Part shown: positions 36,605 to 46,231 of the stretch, in pieces
Layout of the letters: each line of letters starts with the position of its first letter
Position numbering within the stretch: position 1 is the first letter of the stretch
Origin: Synergistales bacterium
GTDB lineage: Bacteria > Synergistota > Synergistia > Synergistales > JAFGMB01
Direction: 5' to 3'
Length of the DNA: 64,000 bases
NCBI GenBank assembly: GCA_963666205.1
Contig: OY762654.1
Coordinates: 2,272,001-2,336,000, forward strand
Position numbers and translations under genes: made by a program
The notes under the pieces: generated by a model
What the model was told of the DNA's origin: nothing
Seen by the model: the letters and a program-made list of their open reading frames with translations, nothing else
Database searches by the model: none

Positions 36605-37390
36605 ATGAAAAAGGTTTTTTCATCCCGGGAAAGGGGTTTTACCCTCGTAGAAATCCTGGTAGTGATAGTAATAGCTGGGATACTGTCAGGCAGTTTAGTG
36701 CTGGCAATGGGCAAGGCTGATGTTAAACCCAAGGCATCAAAGATCATCAGTGATATCAGAACGGTCAAGGCAGGAGCACTGATGTATGTCCTGGATAATG
36801 GAAGAAGCATTAATGGCGGTGCAGACATAAGCGTTCTTCAACCTTATGCCAGTCCGGAGATACTGAATAATGAAGATGTAACATACAGCTTTGTGACCAT
36901 TGAGGGACAGACCTATCTTAAGGTGAACCTGAGCGCCGTTGAAGATGAAGTTAAGGAAAAAATAGCAGAGATGATTGATGGAAACGAATTCTATCAACCT
37001 CAGGCCTCTCTTCATCTTTACAGAGAATTGATGAATCTTGCTTTTGATTCGAGAAATAACGTTATTTCTTTTTTTGCAGCTAAACCTGCTTATGCAGGTA
37101 ACAACGGTAACAACGGTAACAATGGTAACAATGGTAACAATGGTAACAACGGTAACAACGGTAACAACGGTAACAATGGTAACAATGGTAACACCAACGA
37201 TAATACTGGCAATAATCAAGATAATAATCAAGATAATAATCAAGACAATGGAAACAATATCGGTATTACTTTTAATGATAACGTCGATACCGAAAATGGA
37301 GATTATGAATTATCAGAAGAAAATGATGATGTGAAAGATACAGAATTAGAAAACTACAATGGTGGGGATATCATCCTTATCAGGATCTGA
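36605..37390 (+). CDS. Type IV pilin-like (prepilin N-methylation) protein with Asn-rich insertion
   Basis: RG|FTLVEILVVIVIAGIL prepilin site; KIISDIRTVKAGALMY; GGAGG RBS. Confidence 0.88.
   Translation: MKKVFSSRERGFTLVEILVVIVIAGILSGSLVLAMGKADVKPKASKIISDIRTVKAGALMYVLDNGRSINGGADISVLQPYASPEILNNEDVTYSFVTIEGQTYLKVNLSAVEDEVKEKIAEMIDGNEFYQPQASLHLYRELMNLAFDSRNNVISFFAAKPAYAGNNGNNGNNGNNGNNGNNGNNGNNGNNGNNGNTNDNTGNNQDNNQDNNQDNGNNIGITFNDNVDTENGDYELSEENDDVKDTELENYNGGDIILIRI
37097..37192 (+). repeat. 9-bp tandem repeat GGTAACAAY, 10 full units plus 6 nt, encoding (GNN)n
   Basis: Read directly from the sequence. Confidence 0.97.
37211..37246 (+). repeat. 12-bp tandem repeat AATAATCAAGAY x3, encoding NNQD
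   Basis: Read directly from the sequence. Confidence 0.95.
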
Positions 37391-37459: not shown

Positions 37460-38010
37460 TTGTTTTCTCCTTCTCTTCTAGGACTATCTGGAAGTAGTAT
37501 CAGCGTTTTCGAGGGGGTTCTTAATGGAACATGCAACTTAATTATGGATCTTCTCCAGAATGGGGAAGAATTTGAGGAGGCTCTAAGAAGGTTCAGCAGA
37601 GGGGATATGCAGAAGTCGATCCTTCCATGGATATTGATGGAATAGATACTGCTCTTAAGGCAATGATACTTTCTCAGGTTCTTATGAATTCTCCTGTTCC
37701 GGATATTGGTGCCATGGAGGTAAAGGGGATATCAGATCTTGATCCTGTATATATTAACAGCGCAAGGGATAAAAATGAACGGATCCGTCTTATCGCCAAG
37801 GGCGAAAGGATGAATGGTGATATCCGGATATCAGTGAAACCGATATCTCTTGCACCTGATCATCCTCTGTATTATCTTCCAGGAGCAGTCAACGGGATCA
37901 TTCTGTCTTACGATGTCCTTGATTCAATTTGTCTTACCGGTGCACGTACTGGTTCAAGGGAAACAGGTTTTGCTCTGCTTCATGATCTGCTATCCTTGTG
38001 GGGGGTAGAA
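37460..38010 (+). pseudogene. hom: Homoserine dehydrogenase remnant (N-terminal domain missing, frameshifted)
   Basis: FEGVLNGTCNLI...FEEAL / KVQQRGYAEVDPSMDIDGIDTALK...HPL...G..NGI...GARTGSRETGFALLHD; 1-nt frameshift near 37586; no NAD-binding domain. Confidence 0.82.
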
Positions 38011-38061
38011 TTTAAGATTCTCCAGTTCTGCTTTTTCTTTAAAATGAGGAGGTTCCCGCAT

Positions 38062-39111
38062 TTGATCGTTCAAAAATATGGAGGTTCTTCTCTTTCATGT
38101 TCCGAAAAGATTCTTAAAGTGGCTGAAAGAATAGTATATGATCTTTCTTCCCATGGAAAAATGGTAGTAGTAGTTTCTGCTATGGGAGATACCACAGATT
38201 ATCTTCTTGATCTTGCTGAACTGGTTTCTGAAAAACCTCTTTCCCGGGAAGTAGATGTTCTTCTTTCAACGGGAGAGCAGATATCAGCCTCACTTCTGGC
38301 CATGGCTCTGGGCACAAAGGGGATATGTGCAAGATCTTTCAATGCTTTCCAGCTTGGAATCATTACGGATGATCATCATGGAAATGCCCGTATAATCTCT
38401 ATAGATAAGGGGAAAATCGAAGAATCTTTTAAAGATAATGATGTACTTGTCGTAACCGGCTTTCAGGGTATTAACTCCCTTGGTGATATAACGACCCTCG
38501 GCAGGGGGGGGTCTGATATTACTGCTGTAGCCATAGCTTCCTGCTGTAACTGCCCCTGTGAAATATACAGTGATGTGGCTGGTATATATACCTGCGATCC
38601 CGGATTGATACCTGGAGCTAAAAAACTGGAATTTATAACGTATGACCATATGCTTATTCTGGCCATGGCTGGTGCTGAAGTTCTTAATCCTGTTGCCGTA
38701 GAAAAAGCAAAAAATGATGGGGTTCCTCTCTATTGTGGCTCCACTTTCTCAGACGAAAAAGGAACGAGAGTGGTGGATTCCTTTCCTGATGAAATGGAAC
38801 TTCAGGATGTTATCGGTATTGCAACTGAAATAGTAGATGGGAAACTTTTTCACACGAAAGTGGGGGCTGATTATCCGGAATTTTCTCTCTCCAATTCTTT
38901 TTTCAGTGGTCCTTTGACAAGGATAACTGCAGTGGGAAATAGGAGAGATCATGAAGCTTTGGGAAACCATGTTCTTTTGTCCCTCAATATGGCAGGGATA
39001 CACCTTTTTGAAGCCAGTGTTAATCCTGGTAATTTTTCAGCTTTGATAAGTACAGAGGACCGGAAACGTTCTGTTGAGGTTTTGGCTTTAGAATTTGGTT
39101 TGCTGAGATAG
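38062..39111 (+). CDS. lysC: Aspartate kinase
   Basis: TTG start behind AGGAGG; IVQKYGGSS, VVSAMGDTTD, LSTGEQ, TLGRGGSD, IYSDVAGIYTCDP; reduced ACT region. Confidence 0.88.
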   Translation: MIVQKYGGSSLSCSEKILKVAERIVYDLSSHGKMVVVVSAMGDTTDYLLDLAELVSEKPLSREVDVLLSTGEQISASLLAMALGTKGICARSFNAFQLGIITDDHHGNARIISIDKGKIEESFKDNDVLVVTGFQGINSLGDITTLGRGGSDITAVAIASCCNCPCEIYSDVAGIYTCDPGLIPGAKKLEFITYDHMLILAMAGAEVLNPVAVEKAKNDGVPLYCGSTFSDEKGTRVVDSFPDEMELQDVIGIATEIVDGKLFHTKVGADYPEFSLSNSFFSGPLTRITAVGNRRDHEALGNHVLLSLNMAGIHLFEASVNPGNFSALISTEDRKRSVEVLALEFGLLR

Positions 39112-41101: not shown

Positions 41102-41503
41102 ATGTTCTTTTTCAAACTTCTGGCACTAATGCTTGGTGTCGAGATGGTTTCCCTTGCTCCAGTTTTCATTCTTATGCACAAAGAGTTCAAAAAGATTCTG
41201 TTTAATGTTCTCTGTCCGGAACAGCGTCCTTCATGGATGTGGTTCCCTATCACCGGAGTCGCAGGTCTGATATTACTTGCCTGGTATGTTGAGTTGACAA
41301 CGAAGGTAAATCTGTCCTGGATAATTACCCTTTATCTGACCCTCGGGTTTGTCAAGTTCTACCTGATAATTTTCAGATATGATCAGTTTAGAGATATTAT
41401 GATCGACTTTAGTCGGAAAGAACGTTTTTTTCAGTGGGGGTTAGGATCATTGATATACTTTATTGGTATCTTTTTTCTGATCCTTGGGATGTTCGGCTTC
41501 TGA
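41102..41503 (+). CDS. Hypothetical membrane protein
   Basis: Four hydrophobic segments; GGGGGGTG RBS. Confidence 0.7.
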   Translation: MFFFKLLALMLGVEMVSLAPVFILMHKEFKKILFNVLCPEQRPSWMWFPITGVAGLILLAWYVELTTKVNLSWIITLYLTLGFVKFYLIIFRYDQFRDIMIDFSRKERFFQWGLGSLIYFIGIFFLILGMFGF

Positions 41504-41541
41504 TATCCTGTTCATAGTGTCTGGTTCATCTGATCTTTCAG

Positions 41542-41580
41542 TAAAAGGTGGCCCCCCTTTACCAGAGGGGCACCTTTTAC
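41542..41580. terminator. Bidirectional terminator
   Basis: GTAAAAGGTG(G)CCCC...GGGGCACCTTTTAC between convergent genes. Confidence 0.7.
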
Positions 41581-41590
41581 TTTTCATTTT

Positions 41591-41875
41591 TTAATTGGCC
41601 GGAGTATAGATATTGACTTCACTGCTTTCCCTGATCTCACCCAATCGGGGGACCAGAGCAGTGAAGTGGGGAGCTTTAAAATGAGCTTCCAGACTCTCCA
41701 TGGTATCCCATACTTCCAGAAAAGTAAGAATCAAGGGGTTATCCTTATCCTGGTAAAGAGCATATGAAATGCATCCCTTTTCTTTACGTGTCATATCGAC
41801 AAGTTCATAGGCTATCTTTTTGTACTCCTCCTGTAACTCTTTCTTGACTATTGATTTAGCTACTACGTGTATCAA
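41591..41875 (-). CDS. Antibiotic biosynthesis monooxygenase (ABM) / putative quinol monooxygenase
   Basis: TRKEKGCISYAL, FLEVW, LEAHFKAPHF; GGAGGGG RBS. Confidence 0.88.
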   Translation of the reverse strand: MIHVVAKSIVKKELQEEYKKIAYELVDMTRKEKGCISYALYQDKDNPLILTFLEVWDTMESLEAHFKAPHFTALVPRLGEIRESSEVNIYTPAN

Positions 41876-42240
41876 CTATTTCCCCTCCATTTAATTCAGA
41901 TACAAAAAACCTTCTGGATTGAATAATTTTATCACAGGAAGATTTTAATAAGGATAATGGCTGACATTAGTTGACTCATTAAAAATTTATTCATTCGTGA
42001 ATTTGTTCTAAGTTATTATAATTACAACAGAATCTTCTACAGGTATAGAATGATCTTAATAAAAAGGGTATAAGAGCCTGACCAAAACTGCTCTATATCT
42101 GATCTTTTGTCATATTTCATAATGAGAGAATAGATAATCATGTTAGCGATAAGACATATTTAGATGGCATTGTGTAGAGTCTGACTGGATCCTGTAAATA
42201 TATTCCACAGATTCCATCAGTGAATTAATTTGTAACAATA

Positions 42241-42522
42241 ACTTGTATATGTGCTGTTCGTCTGGATATTATAGCTATTCCTGGAGAAACCTCCCCTTCT
42301 CCTCTTTCTGCAATTATTGCAGATGAAGCTGCCTCGGTAATATCAACCGTAAGATCACTGCTGTCAGTCTCATTCATTTCCCGGGAAAAAATTAGGTGAT
42401 GTTGTCGAATTTGGAGGATTATCAGGGAGAGCTTTCGTAATGTTGGTTAGCACCTTCGGTTCTGAGATGTTTATTGCCAGGGGAGGGAGGTCCCTGCCCC
42501 TGTTATTGTTTTGAATAATTGA
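42241..42522 (+). pseudogene. C-terminal remnant of a UPF0210/DUF711 (PFL-family) protein
   Basis: Across about 3 frameshifts: CAVRLDIIAIPGETS..LSAIIADEAA / [16 protein letters not shown] / [12 protein letters not shown]...FIARGGR / PAPV..LNN*. Confidence 0.8.
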
Positions 42523-42528
42523 AAGGAT

Positions 42529-42783
42529 CTAACCATTATGTTTGAGTTTTCTGACCAGTATCAGAACAGCCATCCATATAAAGGCAACTGAGCAAGAGGC
42601 TTGAATGCTATTGCTTGCAAGATATCCGAAATATCCGGAGAGGCAGGGTGTCCCGATAGTGACCCCCTGTCTCATGAGGATAAGTAAATAAGGATCGGGA
42701 ATCACCCTTTTCAGGATCAGATAAACTCCCAGGAAGGGGAATGTCCAGAGAGAAGCGCCAAGAGCTGTTGCGAAAGAGATCAT
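42529..42783 (-). CDS. Small hypothetical membrane protein
   Basis: AAGGAG RBS; 84 aa, hydrophobic. Confidence 0.55.
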   Translation of the reverse strand: MISFATALGASLWTFPFLGVYLILKRVIPDPYLLILMRQGVTIGTPCLSGYFGYLASNSIQASCSVAFIWMAVLILVRKLKHNG

Positions 42784-42903
42784 TCTGTTTTTTCTCCTTT
42801 TGATTTCCAGTCATTTTATGTATTTTCACTCGAAAAATGCATATCTGAAAGGTCTGGCCCCTTTGTTCATTGATTATTCAGGCCACCGACTTACCTATTC
42901 TTT

Positions 42904-43359
42904 TTAAAATAGTCGTTTTATGATGTAACCCCAGAATAATGGTGCCAGGAGCATTGTTCCAAGAACAATCAACCCTAATCTACCCTCCTTTATTCTGTAA
43001 TCATAAAGGATAAGAGATATGGGTGTTCTGAGAAGAAAATACATTATTAAGGTCTCTGTTATAACACTGAGGATTACCCATATTATACCTGTCAGCAGGA
43101 GAAAAGGGATAGATGCTTCAATGCTGGAAGTGCCTACAAGAAGCCAGAAAAGAAATAGGATTACCAGTATGATCATTGATGTTTCTGTCTGGTGGGACCT
43201 TCTTTCTCCTGCGAAAGGAACGAGAAATACGTTTTTGAATCCTCTGATGATAATTTTTAAAAAAACAAGAACTACCCAGAACCTCAAAGCCCACATGATA
43301 AGATCATCCATTGACAACGTCCTTCCGGTGTTTTGTTCATGTAATTCCTTTCGAATCAT
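42904..43359 (-). CDS. Hypothetical membrane protein
   Basis: Four TM segments; W..L...E...DY....GRL..IVL..ML.AP pattern. Confidence 0.65.
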   Translation of the reverse strand: MIRKELHEQNTGRTLSMDDLIMWALRFWVVLVFLKIIIRGFKNVFLVPFAGERRSHQTETSMIILVILFLFWLLVGTSSIEASIPFLLLTGIIWVILSVITETLIMYFLLRTPISLILYDYRIKEGRLGLIVLGTMLLAPLFWGYIIKRLF

Positions 43360-43587
43360 TTCAAGAGATATTATAGATCAGATTTTATACCCAGCCGGGG
43401 ATACATTGTCAAAAGAAAATGATGTTGACATTCCCCTTCTTAACACTTCTGTTTAAGCCCTTTGGTACTGTTTTACAGATTGTTTTACTTTACCAGTTCT
43501 CCAATACATCATTTGACCATGATAGAGAAAAGATGTATCATCTATTCACGTATATGAATCAGCGTTTATGAGTGGGGTACAGGAGGA

Positions 43588-44028
43588 GTGAATGTTATGA
43601 CAAAAATGCAGGTTAATTATGTTTATTTTGCTCTTGTTCTTTTACTTTCCATGCTTCTTCTTATAACCGGTCGCATAATGGTTGCACAAAGCTATTCTTC
43701 TGAGACTGAAAATGTCGGGAGGGTAGAAGTAGCACAGGCAAGGCAGAGAATTCTTACAGGAGAGAGTCTTTTTGTTTGTGCATACGATGGTATTGAAAAA
43801 TACAGATCCGTTGCTCTTGAAGGATCCATATCCCTCAATAGTTTCAAGGAGGTATTGAATGAAATACCTCTGGATAAAGAGATAATATTTTACTGAGCAT
43901 GACCGGAGGAAGCTTCAGCAGTCCGTGTGGCTGCGTCCTTTCTTGAGCAGGGCTACAATGTCAAAGCTCTTCTCGGAGGAGTAGATGCGTGGAAAGATGC
44001 AGGTTATATTGATCTTGTATGTGAATGA
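43588..44028 (+). CDS. Exported rhodanese-like (seleno)protein with two in-frame UGA codons (Y-U-A-U-P)
   Basis: Frame continues past TGA 43894 and TGA 43900 as PEEASAVRVAASFLEQGYNVKALLGGVDAWKDAGY, the rhodanese C-terminal signature; SECIS-like hairpin at 43918-43934. Confidence 0.8.
43906..43940 (+). promoter_or_regulatory. Candidate bacterial SECIS element
   Basis: Stem GCAGUC/GGCUGC with loop CGUGU, starting 22 nt after the second UGA; possible lower stem GAGGA/UCCUU. Confidence 0.6.
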
Positions 44029-44396
44029 GTTATCACTTTATGTGTCTTTAAAATAGGGGAAACGAATATAATCCGCGTAAATCTCGTTCGGTTGAAGAAC
44101 CCATAAAAACAGAAACAGGCGATATGTTACTGTAGAAGTGGAAAAAGATTTGCAATGATGGGGCTGAAAAGCCCCTTTCCAGTTTTATTCTCTTGGTTAT
44201 TTTACTTAAGGATCGTATATGGATCTTTTCCCATATCTGAATGCTATCAGGCCCCCCACGGGTATTCTGGTAGAAGGGAAAATGAGGGGTATTTCGTTAA
44301 TGGCATTTCCCTTTGGCGAGAGTGTTCTTTATTGAACTGGGAAATTCGGTATTCTATTCTGAAAATTGCCATTATCATTTTTTAGAAAAATAATGG

Positions 44397-44425
44397 TTGA
44401 CTCATTCTATAAACATGTGTAAGAT
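44397..44425 (+). promoter_or_regulatory. Sigma70 promoter of the ilv leader region
   Basis: TTGACT-17 bp-TAAGAT with TG extension. Confidence 0.75.
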
Positions 44426-44470
44426 GACCACTAATTTACTTTCAGCAGCCACAGCAAAGGAGGGATAGCA

Positions 44471-44572
44471 GTGAAAGGAACGTCATTTATCAAGATCCAG
44501 CACATCAACGTAATAATTATAGCCATCATTATTAGCTGCGGGTCCCTTCCTGGAGCGTTTGTTGGCTGTTAA
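44471..44572 (+). CDS. Ile-rich ilv attenuator leader peptide, copy 1 (33 aa, MKGTSFIKIQHINVIIIAIIISCGSLPGAFVGC)
   Basis: AAAGGAGG RBS, GTG start, 9 Ile codons, followed by antiterminator and terminator. Confidence 0.85.
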   Translation: MKGTSFIKIQHINVIIIAIIISCGSLPGAFVGC

Positions 44573-44593
44573 CATCTGACCAGCATGCATTTC

Positions 44594-44632
44594 AGGGCCG
44601 GGATTCCCCGAAGGGGTTCCGGCCCTTTTTTT
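44594..44632 (+). terminator. Attenuator terminator 1
   Basis: AGGGCCGGGATTCC...GGGGTTCCGGCCC followed by TTTTTTT. Confidence 0.9.
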
Positions 44633-44711
44633 GTGGAAATCAAAGAAGTGATTCAGTAGCGATATAGAGATGGATTGTTAGCGATACCTTGTCAACAAAG
44701 GAGGGATAGCA

Positions 44712-44813
44712 GTGAAAGGAACGTCATTTGTAAAGATCCAGTACATCAACATAATAATTATAGCCATCATTATTAACTGCGGGTCCCTTCCTGGAGCATT
44801 TGTTGGCTGTTAA
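44712..44813 (+). CDS. Ile-rich ilv attenuator leader peptide, copy 2 (33 aa, MKGTSFVKIQYINIIIIAIIINCGSLPGAFVGC)
   Basis: Near-identical to copy 1, 241 nt downstream; same RBS; 9 Ile codons. Confidence 0.85.
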   Translation: MKGTSFVKIQYINIIIIAIIINCGSLPGAFVGC

Positions 44814-44834
44814 CATATCACCAGCAGGCATTTC

Positions 44835-44871
44835 AGGGCCGGGACTCCCGAAGGGGTCCCGGCCCTTTTTT
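44835..44871 (+). terminator. Attenuator terminator 2
   Basis: AGGGCCGGGACTCC-CGAA-GGGGTCCCGGCCC followed by TTTTTT. Confidence 0.9.
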
Positions 44872-44903
44872 GTGGAGAAACTGAGGATAAGGGAGGGAAA
44901 GTT

Positions 44904-45155
44904 ATGGAGGGTTATCTCAAGGTAGTAGCAGAAGACAATCCGGCAACTCTTGTTAAGATATCAAGTCTTCTGTGCAGGAAAGGTTATGAAGTTAAAAGCC
45001 TGACTTTTGGGCCTGATTCATCTGAAGGATTGTCTCTTTTCAACATTGTCCTGAGGGATAACGGAAAAGAAGCCATCAGGATCCTTAAGCAGATAAACAA
45101 GCTGATCGAAGTTGTTGAAGTGAGATCAGTAGAGCCTGAAGGAGTGACTGTATAA
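44904..45155 (+). CDS. ilvN: Acetolactate synthase small subunit, short ACT-only form
   Basis: ACT domain ending KQINKLIEVVEV; first gene ahead of ilvC and ilvB. Confidence 0.8.
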   Translation: MEGYLKVVAEDNPATLVKISSLLCRKGYEVKSLTFGPDSSEGLSLFNIVLRDNGKEAIRILKQINKLIEVVEVRSVEPEGVTV

Positions 45156-45214
45156 GTATCCTGATACATAGAGAAACGTGGAGACAGAAAGAATTACTAA
45201 TATAAAAGGAGTGC

Positions 45215-46231
45215 ATGACATTGGCAAAGATCTATTACGACAAAGATACGGATATGAAGGTTCTTGAGGGAAAGACAGTAGCAGTACTTGGATATGGAAG
45301 CCAGGGGCATGCCCATGCCCAGAATCTTAGGGACAGTGGTGTGAATGTAGTGGTAGGACTCTATGAAGGCAGTCGTTCTGCCGTTACTGCAAGAGCAGAC
45401 GGATTTGAGGTTTTTTCTGTTGGTGAAGCGACATCTCTGGCAGATGTAGTAATGTTCCTTATGCCCGATCATCTTCAGGGCAGGGTCTTTCATGAAAGTG
45501 TTAAGCCCAATCTTAAGCAGGGAATGGCCCTTGCCTTTGCCCATGGATTCTCAATCCACTTCAACCAGGTTGAACCACCTGCAGGAGTGGATGTATTCAT
45601 GATCTCTCCCAAGAGTCCTGGTCACCTGGTGAGGTCCATGTACAAGGAAGGTAAGGGAGTACCTGCTCTTGTGGCGGTAAGGGAGAATGCGTCAGGTAAT
45701 GCCATGGATATAGCGCTGGCCTATGGTTCAGGTATAGGTGCAGGCAGGGCAGGGATTCTTGAGACTAATTTCAAGGAAGAAACGGAGACCGATCTTTTTG
45801 GTGAGCAGGTAGTTCTCTGCGGAGGCATCACTGAACTTATGAAAGCTGGTTTTGAAGTTCTGACCGAGGCAGGTTACGATCCTGAGATCGCCTACTTCGA
45901 GTGTCTTAATGAGATGAAGCTCATAGTGGATCTTATGTTCGAGGGTGGAATTTCGTGGATGAGATACAGTGTGAGTGATACTGCCAACTATGGAGATATG
46001 TGTGTGGGTCCCAGGATCATAGATGAGGATGCAAGAGAGAAGATGAGAGAAGTCCTCCGCAATGTTCAGGATGGGGTTTTTGCAAAGGACTGGATCCTTG
46101 AGAATCAGACAGGCCGTCCCCGCTTAAAGAAGTGGATGAAGAGTGAACAGGAACACCCAATAGAGACGGTTGGTTCCCAGCTCAGGGATATGATGCCATG
46201 GCTTAATGCCAAAAGGGTTCCTAAACCCTAG
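45215..46231 (+). CDS. ilvC: Ketol-acid reductoisomerase
   Basis: [45 protein letters not shown]. Confidence 0.97.

Follow-up and report, generated by a model that had tools for sequence, protein, structure and literature searches.

A U-x-U form of a rhodanese-family selenoprotein was reported in 2007, when Zhang and Gladyshev described a UxU 'rhodanese-related sulfurtransferase' from the Olavius algarvensis symbiont metagenome and explained that 'a second Sec evolved ... resulting in a UxU motif' (PMC1976440). The sections of that report relied on here describe the protein solely from metagenomic contigs of deltaproteobacterial symbionts and make no mention of a membrane anchor, a partner gene, the sharing of a SECIS element or recurrence (PMC1976440). 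The table of a 2026 review includes the entries 'rhodanese-like form 3, NF041203, CxU, 1 Sec' and TsoB, with UxxxxU and 2 Sec, and none of its listed rows is a U-x-U rhodanese entry (PMC13188914). TsoB (NF045694; rhodanese/DsbD fusion-like) resembles the protein considered here in having a rhodanese domain and two closely spaced selenocysteine (Sec) residues (PMC13188914); it differs in being a 572-position fusion protein with another Sec spacing (UxxxxU). A literature search for the LYCAU rhodanese gave nothing relevant among the matches listed, and the Haft preprint (10.1101/2022.07.06.499078) mentions rhodanese 0 times. With regard to decoding, the SECIS of Escherichia coli fdhF, which is recognized by SelB, is a coding-region hairpin just 3' of the UGA with a G (and U) in a small apical loop, and its upper stem-loop lies 11 nt from the UGA (PMC8659212). 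In contrast to fdhF with its one UGA (PMC8659212), the locus described below has one element that apparently serves two.

Here, we analysed a rhodanese-like gene in a 64,000-nt stretch of DNA (the window) from a Synergistales bacterium. An earlier note on this DNA, made from its letters, had proposed that two in-frame UGA codons in the gene are both Sec codons read with one SECIS, giving a U-x-U site. This proposal is well supported by comparative evidence, namely the conservation of the codons, selection on the tail, covariation in the hairpin and the Sec machinery of the genome. The features of the locus are as follows:

42904 to 43359, minus strand: predicted gene for a 151-residue protein with four transmembrane helices (4-TM protein), the divergent neighbour, from its conserved adjacency in 5/5 family genomes
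43581 to 43586, plus strand: Shine-Dalgarno-like AGGAGG, 10 nt 5' of the ATG at 43597, as suggested by sequence reading
43597 to 44028, plus strand: coding sequence of the rhodanese selenoprotein, 143 residues (Sec100, Sec102), TGA stop included, from translation, Pfam, AlphaFold2 and Foldseek
43612 to 43665, plus strand: hydrophobic core of the N-terminal membrane helix, residues 6-23, VNYVYFALVLLLSMLLLI, from a hydropathy scan and the model helix
43894 to 43896, plus strand: first in-frame UGA, residue 100, at the canonical catalytic Cys position, from profile alignment to 6mxv and 3o3w
43900 to 43902, plus strand: second in-frame UGA, residue 102, at the canonical Sec position of the family, from its conservation as TGA in the homologue segments (92/92)
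43918 to 43934, plus strand: SECIS-like hairpin with a 6-bp stem and the 5-nt loop CGUGU, from pairing and covariation in 92 segments
44026 to 44028, plus strand: terminating TGA of the rhodanese gene, at the same position in orthologues

The codons TAC TGA GCA TGA CCG (43891-43905) stand directly after those for ...EIIFY, and beyond the second UGA the frame stays open for 41 codons (PEEASAVRVAASFLEQGYNVKALLGGVDAWKDAGYIDLVCE) up to the TGA stop at 44026-44028, so the sequence bears out the two in-frame UGAs and the open tail that had been described. The stop codon has an equal position in the orthologues, being TGA in G001, G003 and G004 and TAA in G002 (G000 denotes the window's own genome, and these four are its family relatives). 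Residues are numbered from the ATG at 43597, which places the UGAs at residues 100 and 102 of 143. This ATG is more likely to be the start than the alternative GTG at 43588, because it follows AGGAGG at a distance of 10 nt and because MTKMQ is the N-terminus of the stored public proteins. TGA is an ordinary stop in this genome: it terminates 10 of the 35 ORFs of at least 250 aa in the 64-kb window, and the rhodanese gene as well. General reassignment of UGA was rejected on the basis of this count. A separate gene 3' of the second UGA was also rejected, given that sequence reading finds neither a start codon nor a ribosome-binding site there. A promoter scan near the gene returned 6 sites against 5.6 expected, and the TTGACC-17-TATCAT arrangement at 43513-43541 therefore provides no promoter evidence.

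Conservation of the two codons was assessed at two scales. The order-level search covered 61 genomes, that is, the window's own and 60 same-order relatives, and 15 of them had a match at E ≤ 0.001. A full-length, membrane-anchored orthologue was present in all five genomes of the window's taxonomic family. The active-site motif reads FY-U-A-U in G000 and G001, FY-U-A-U in G003 at 55% identity, FY-U-G-U in G004 at 44% identity and FY-C-N-U in G002 at 56% identity; U-x-U is thus found in four of the five family genomes (G000, G001, G003 and G004), across three genera and 98-44% identity. Nine same-order genomes of other families encode shorter cytoplasmic forms of about 103 residues, with C-A-U or C-G-U in 9/9. 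The species-level scan used one genome per species (185,579 species), and the best 80 of 102 relatives were kept. Tabulating Cys against UGA, as the earlier note had suggested, gave TGY (C-x-U) at the first position in 71 of these best 80 of 102 loci, TGA (U-x-U) in 8 and one undecided (L104), while the second position was TGA in 92/92 aligned homologue segments (columns 13-15 invariant). The statement of the note that relatives carry C-x-U holds in those 71 loci. The eight U-x-U loci comprise one from Acetomicrobium (L049), three from Nitrospirota (L068, L080 and L115), two unclassified, recorded as 'bacterium' (L102 and L112) and two assigned to 'delta proteobacteria' (L105 and L124). The order-level and species-level counts are not to be summed because the sets overlap, the L049 protein being the G001 protein. 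The description of such a site as rare, and implicitly as new, was overstated, since a UxU rhodanese was reported in 2007 and several phyla contribute to the 8 U-x-U loci among the 80.

A maximum-likelihood tree of 88 rows, built without L036, L112, L116 and L124 (fewer than 50 residues upstream), requires 5 changes of the U-x-U state, at least 3 of which are forced by well-supported branches. The AU test rejected a single U-x-U clade (p 0.003, log-likelihood difference 76.3), the group being set by the U-x-U trait but named after the tree was viewed. The comparison indicates that U-x-U evolved several times out of C-x-U with the hairpin unaltered, and that TGY and TGA at the catalytic position were swapped repeatedly via single-base changes under a constant hairpin. 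For the window's family, the simplest reading would be an ancestral U-x-U with a single reversion to Cys in G002.

The hairpin GCAGUC-CGUGU-GGCUGC is present as the earlier note had claimed, with G second in the loop. The loop opens at 43924, which is base 22 after the second UGA and base 28 after the first, so that 21 and 27 bases intervene, and the stem begins 15 and 21 nt after the two UGAs. Its conservation was examined in an ungapped alignment of 92 distinct 66-nt homologue segments, each of which begins two codons ahead of the first position. Across the stem of six pairs (columns 31-36 with 42-47), 93.1% of 552 cells were paired, compared with 28-53% when the 3' partner was slid by 1-3 columns. 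Both sides of the stem were changed in 68 cells, and the observed covariation score was reached by 0 of 500 shuffles. Columns 33 and 45, which are codon third positions (Ser/Ala and Ala), pair as UA in 55 segments, CG in 28, GC in 4, UG in 3 and AU in 2, with 0 unpaired; protein constraint cannot explain this pair because two synonymous third positions are involved and they are never unpaired. G occupies loop position 2 in all hairpins, and the loop is GGUCG or GGUCA in many homologues. As a negative control, the non-Sec paralogues (C-D-S/T; G000, G001 and G003) were inspected, and 3/3 had only 2 of 6 pairs in the hairpin register. In a thermodynamic test, the hairpin region of the window did not fold better than shuffles (z 0.47), and support for the hairpin rests on covariation rather than energy. 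The hairpin occupies identical columns in U-x-U and C-x-U genes and is similar in length and strength in both, averaging 6.4 bp and -9.8 kcal/mol in U-x-U rows (n=11) and 5.8 bp and -9.0 kcal/mol in C-x-U rows (n=81). No second conserved hairpin was seen across the 92 homologue segments, and an Rfam scan of 41400-45300 at E ≤ 0.1 gave zero matches. The locus thus has what characterizes a bacterial SECIS, a conserved hairpin with a G in its small apical loop, shortly 3' of a UGA.

Spacing was compared with that of six other genes in the same genome, for which the UGA-to-loop distances, taken from MFE folds with hairpins assigned by eye, are 17 nt (selD), 18 nt (two copies of grdB), 24 nt (fdhA) and 25 nt (two copies of grdA). 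The 21 nt of the second UGA fall within this range of 17-25, and the 27 nt of the first lie 2 nt outside it. The published bacterial SECIS model permits 16-37 nt between UGA and loop. The genome itself, a single 2.95-Mb contig, was searched with curated cut-offs for the Sec machinery, and the four components that the earlier note had asked to be confirmed are all present: tRNA-Sec (selC) at 77.1 bits, above cut-off and with the anticodon tca (ARAGORN); selB at 364 bits and selA at 565 bits, both over their curated cut-offs; and selD at 334 bits, also above cut-off. The selD gene carries one in-frame TGA of its own, and the two grdA copies and fdhA have one each. Synergistetes have been described as selenoprotein-rich, with Sec used by 13 of 14 genomes (PMC5029168).

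Evidence that the tail is translated comes from substitution patterns. Between genera, the 41 codons after the UGAs have a dN of 0.29-0.47 and a dS above 1.4 or saturated, with ratios of 0.17-0.33 in the comparisons that allow one. For the 54 codons that precede the first UGA, dN is 0.27-0.41, disregarding the comparisons that involve G004, which a one-codon insertion puts out of register; both sides are therefore equally constrained, and purifying selection is present downstream of the UGAs. Between G000 and G001, the tail has 4 base differences and 2 residue differences. Furthermore, G001 and L049, which are separate assemblies, carry the identical TGA GCA TGA, as do contigs from four public runs. 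Among these contigs, a DNA metagenome contig (X4), from a run that may be the source sample, covers 43450-44150 with one difference, C>T at 43510. Two metatranscriptome-library contigs of one study (X7 and X12) cover 43654-44150 and 43732-44150 with zero differences, and are not proof of transcription; one further run has a contig over 43727-43945, also with zero differences. The recurrence of the same codons in G001, L049 and the contigs of four runs rules out, for practical purposes, a TGA unique to this strain or a sequencing error, either of which would have undermined the original proposal.

The read-through protein scores 27.8 bits against Pfam Rhodanese (PF00581; cut-off 22.2). Its AlphaFold2 model, based on a 78-row alignment, has a mean pLDDT of 91.7 and consists of a long helix (residues 3-38) followed by an alpha/beta domain (41-143). 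In Foldseek searches, the alpha/beta domain matched solved rhodaneses, including BH2092 (3nhv) at E 5.6e-7 and the rhodanese domains of CoA-disulfide and persulfide reductases, GlpE, Sud and YgaP. YgaP (2mrm) and Sud (1qxn) are single rhodanese domains with Cys only, at 13-17% sequence identity to the model. Both E. coli YgaP and Wolinella succinogenes Sud are membrane-tethered or exported, YgaP being anchored at its C-terminus. A PDB profile search aligned the 'FY-C' of the family with the 'FYC' of 6mxv, whose Cys opens the active-site loop, and the first UGA therefore stands at the canonical catalytic Cys position. Thus, the assignment of the residue after IIFY to the catalytic Cys of rhodaneses agrees with the alignment to solved structures (6mxv and 3o3w). 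The loop of the family is 2 residues longer than that of 6mxv and, in the window protein, reads Tyr-Sec-Ala-Sec-Pro upon read-through. The Pfam score above cut-off and the alpha/beta fold, with the catalytic position immediately following the central beta-strand, together place the protein among the rhodaneses. A nearly invariant Cys61 (in 'LLVCAY') marks the FY-[CU]-x-U clade, and a Cys adjoining the C-terminus (Cys142) is added in 5/5 members of the window's own taxonomic family.

Among NCBIfam models, the best match was NF041203 ('rhodanese_LYCAU, rhodanese-related (seleno)protein'), at 51.4 bits against a cut-off of 115 and over residues 84-140 only. The orthologues score 52-61 bits, and the window gene, its orthologues and representatives from Geobacter and Nitrospirota score 47-64 bits overall. 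True NF041203 genes occur in the same genome as two tandem genes (G000:C1, approximately 1272061-1272869) with [LI]Y-C-A-U and signal-peptide-like N-termini; of this pair, one member was scanned directly and the other through its G001 counterpart, with scores of 149 and 158 bits. The window protein has a single rhodanese domain, a Sec two residues past the catalytic Cys position and a hairpin in the same register, as NF041203 proteins do. Unlike in those proteins, the catalytic Cys is also Sec, so that the motif is Sec-Ala-Sec rather than Cys-Ala-Sec, and the score is below 115 bits. In the tree, an 82-row FY-[CU]-x-U clade is set apart by a long branch from 6 LYCAU rows. The window protein is accordingly placed, from these sequence comparisons, in a large FY-C-x-U rhodanese selenoprotein clade that is a sister of NF041203, and not within that family. 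It gave no match to NF045694 (TsoB) at E ≤ 0.1, and its relatives reached 19-29 bits against a cut-off of 805. It resembles the 2007 form in being a rhodanese-family selenoprotein with U-x-U, a likeness drawn from the motif description in that report (PMC1976440).

A collection of 5.8 billion proteins yielded 4 matches among 65 candidates, and the full-length form was absent. Three of the four are 99-residue proteins ending in ...EIIFY, namely the window's own product and two relatives with identities of 86% and 79%; the remaining match is a metagenomic homologue of 107 residues with C-A-W (P0005). With stumps for three of four matches and no full-length form stored, the gene has been missed by gene callers, as the earlier note had anticipated. 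Given these stumps and the NF041203 scores far below cut-off, the whole C-x-U / U-x-U rhodanese clade has probably been cut short in annotation.

The N-terminus was also considered with respect to membrane topology. Lysine and arginine are balanced on the flanks of the hydrophobic core at residues 6-23 (1 vs 1-2), and by net charge the N-flank is the more positive side in 4 of 7 orthologues and level in the other 3, never the reverse. These features lean towards an N-in, domain-out topology and would make export of the rhodanese domain plausible. The signal or anchor suggested by the earlier note is thus retained as an anchor on account of the 18-residue hydrophobic core and the model helix 3-38; the description of the protein as exported and extracytoplasmic was too firm for a single helix with balanced K/R and a charge bias in 4/7. 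The predicted 4-TM gene adjoins the rhodanese gene divergently in 5/5 family genomes, with 95-32% identity, and its product was found in 0 of the 56 other same-order genomes. The approximately four membrane helices of this 151-residue neighbour were read from hydrophobic stretches. It has no Pfam or NCBIfam match, and an Atlas search with it returned unnamed clusters only, with a best score of 0.88. A complex prediction of the 4-TM neighbour with rhodanese residues 1-45, the part without Sec, was run with no controls and gave a score of 0.00 (mark 0.32), which counts neither for nor against a complex. A distant paralogue of the 4-TM protein occurs elsewhere in 4/5 family genomes, and the one in G000 adjoins genes that resemble, by eye, NfeD and SPFH. 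Otherwise, the neighbouring genes in the window belong to threonine and branched-chain amino-acid biosynthesis.

Taken as a reading of the locus, both UGAs are very probably Sec codons served by the one SECIS hairpin. In the proposed mechanism, SelB with Sec-tRNA(Sec) would recode both UGAs (43894 and 43900), directed in each case by the single hairpin at 43918-43934, and the product would be one 143-residue protein with an N-terminal membrane helix and then a single rhodanese domain. The second UGA would represent the ancestral Sec of the FY-C-x-U clade, and the first a one-base TGY-to-TGA replacement of the catalytic Cys, a change for which the hairpin already in place, being close enough, would suffice without a new RNA signal. 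Sec100 may be the nucleophile that carries sulfane sulfur or selenium, with Sec102 as its resolving partner through a selenenylsulfide or diselenide and with Cys61 and the C-terminal Cys142 as possible relay residues. The protein may act at the membrane, possibly with the 4-TM neighbour, in chalcogen transfer or reduction. Two successive Sec insertions should lower the yield.

Other explanations were weighed against this reading. It is unlikely that only the second UGA is Sec and that the first is passed by Cys-tRNA(Sec) at low selenium or by near-cognate suppression, giving C/W-x-U. The distance of 27 nt between the first UGA and the loop, outside the range of 17-25 in six other genes of the genome, would fit this explanation, as would the Trp at the second position of P0005, which implies that non-Sec residues are tolerated somewhere in the loop. 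However, a first-position TGA has been maintained in three genera with TGC or TGT one mutation away and in use by G002, and UGA is an ordinary stop in this genome; the repeated origin of U-x-U in other phyla is hard to explain unless Sec is the product. Somewhat less probable still is a selenium-dependent gate at which the first UGA mainly terminates: most of the product would be a 99-residue stump, and the complete protein would appear only with a plentiful supply of Sec-tRNA(Sec). In favour of it, RF2 competes with Sec insertion, the loss is compounded when one Sec codon follows another, and gene callers yield exactly a 99-residue product. Such a product would nevertheless be without the active-site loop and the last helix-strand-helix of the rhodanese fold, and the 41 downstream codons are as constrained as those upstream, which makes the full-length protein the selected product. 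Moreover, this gate overlaps with the two-Sec reading and does not exclude it. For a pseudogene, or for TGAs introduced by sequencing or assembly, there is the raw look of two stops and nothing more; the same codons recur in G001, L049 and the run contigs and persist in G003 and G004, where identity is down to 44-55%, selection on the tail is purifying and the hairpin covaries, so that this possibility is refuted for practical purposes.

The two-Sec protein is a U-x-U variant of the C-x-U rhodanese selenoproteins, a kind already known since 2007. What this analysis adds is the occurrence in a genus for which complete genomes exist, an N-terminal membrane anchor, a conserved partner gene, repeated origin of U-x-U while the hairpin stayed constant, and evidence that annotation resources miss the whole clade. 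A double-Sec rhodanese does not overturn current views, as Synergistetes were already known to be selenoprotein-rich (PMC5029168). It is conceivable, although doubtful, that the double-Sec rhodanese, its Cys61 and Cys142 and the 4-TM protein form a lineage-specific, selenium-based membrane module for redox reactions or chalcogen transfer. The gene would also be a natural example of a single bacterial SECIS serving two Sec codons separated by six bases, with an unusually long spacing for one of the two. If true, this would offer direct experimental access to the slack that SelB has between hairpin and A-site. Chemically, an active site with Sec in the place of the canonical rhodanese nucleophile and another Sec two residues further on would be unusual. 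Furthermore, since the one-base change from Cys to Sec appears to have occurred several times without a change of RNA signal, the reach of a SECIS would extend over at least 6 nt on a single mRNA.

The double-Sec rhodanese gene of the window is flanked on one side by a divergently transcribed gene and on the other by a repeated intergenic segment:
42904-43359 (-), predicted protein of 151 residues with four transmembrane segments (4-TM), of no known family
44452-44639 and 44693-44880 (+), direct repeat, two tandem copies of 188 nt

The 4-TM neighbour carries the conserved motif KN-x-F-x-x-P-x-x-G-x-x-RS, and its gene is divergent from the rhodanese gene in all five genomes of the family; searches of 56 further genomes from the order did not recover it. 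A distant paralogue lies elsewhere in the same genome at locus L146 (G000:C1:1424095-1427478), where, by our reading by eye rather than by profile scan, it is adjoined by NfeD-like and SPFH/band-7-like genes and possibly by a chromate-transporter-like gene.

The 188-nt copies are 88-92% identical and separate the rhodanese gene from the ilvN-like (44904) and ilvC-like (45215) genes. Each has a strong terminator-like hairpin at its end, at 44594-44626 in the first copy and at 44835-44866 in the second. Three weaker, partial copies occur elsewhere in the genome, and Rfam gave no hit to the region with an E-value of 0.1 or less. The repeat may represent an undescribed leader or attenuator, or else a small repeat element.

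Two further ORFs lie in the window:
36605-37387 (+), protein bearing a pilin-like motif (prokaryotic N-terminal methylation) and, below the cut-off, a weak collagen-repeat match (24 bits)
37627-39108 (+), C-terminal homoserine-dehydrogenase segment (residues 2-122) followed by a domain of the amino-acid (aspartate) kinase type at residues 146-370, with the real start possibly farther upstream

Outside the window, the following genes of the same genome each contain one in-frame TGA and a downstream hairpin with G in its loop; as read from MFE folds, the loop is 17 to 25 nt from the UGA:
G000:C1:1003112-1003552, grdA, copy one
G000:C1:2666504-2666944, grdA, copy two
G000:C1:2337019-2339037, fdhA, beginning just beyond the window's end
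G000:C1:2905894-2906826, selD

Among rhodanese homologues, the metagenomic protein P0005 (107 aa, 59% identity) reads FY-C-A-W, with Trp, presumably encoded by TGG, at the Sec position of the family. The genome itself encodes another rhodanese locus, L044:
G000:C1:1272061-1272869 (-), two rhodanese selenoprotein genes in tandem

Both share the active-site motif [LI]Y-C-A-U. The one scanned scores 149 bits against NF041203 (rhodanese_LYCAU), and the counterpart of the other in genome G001, of the same family, scores 158 bits. Their N-termini are signal-peptide-like, as in MKIRKPLFLVLLLSLFLFIPMIAEA, followed by VPK. The products of this tandem pair, rather than the double-Sec rhodanese of the window, look like exported selenoproteins.
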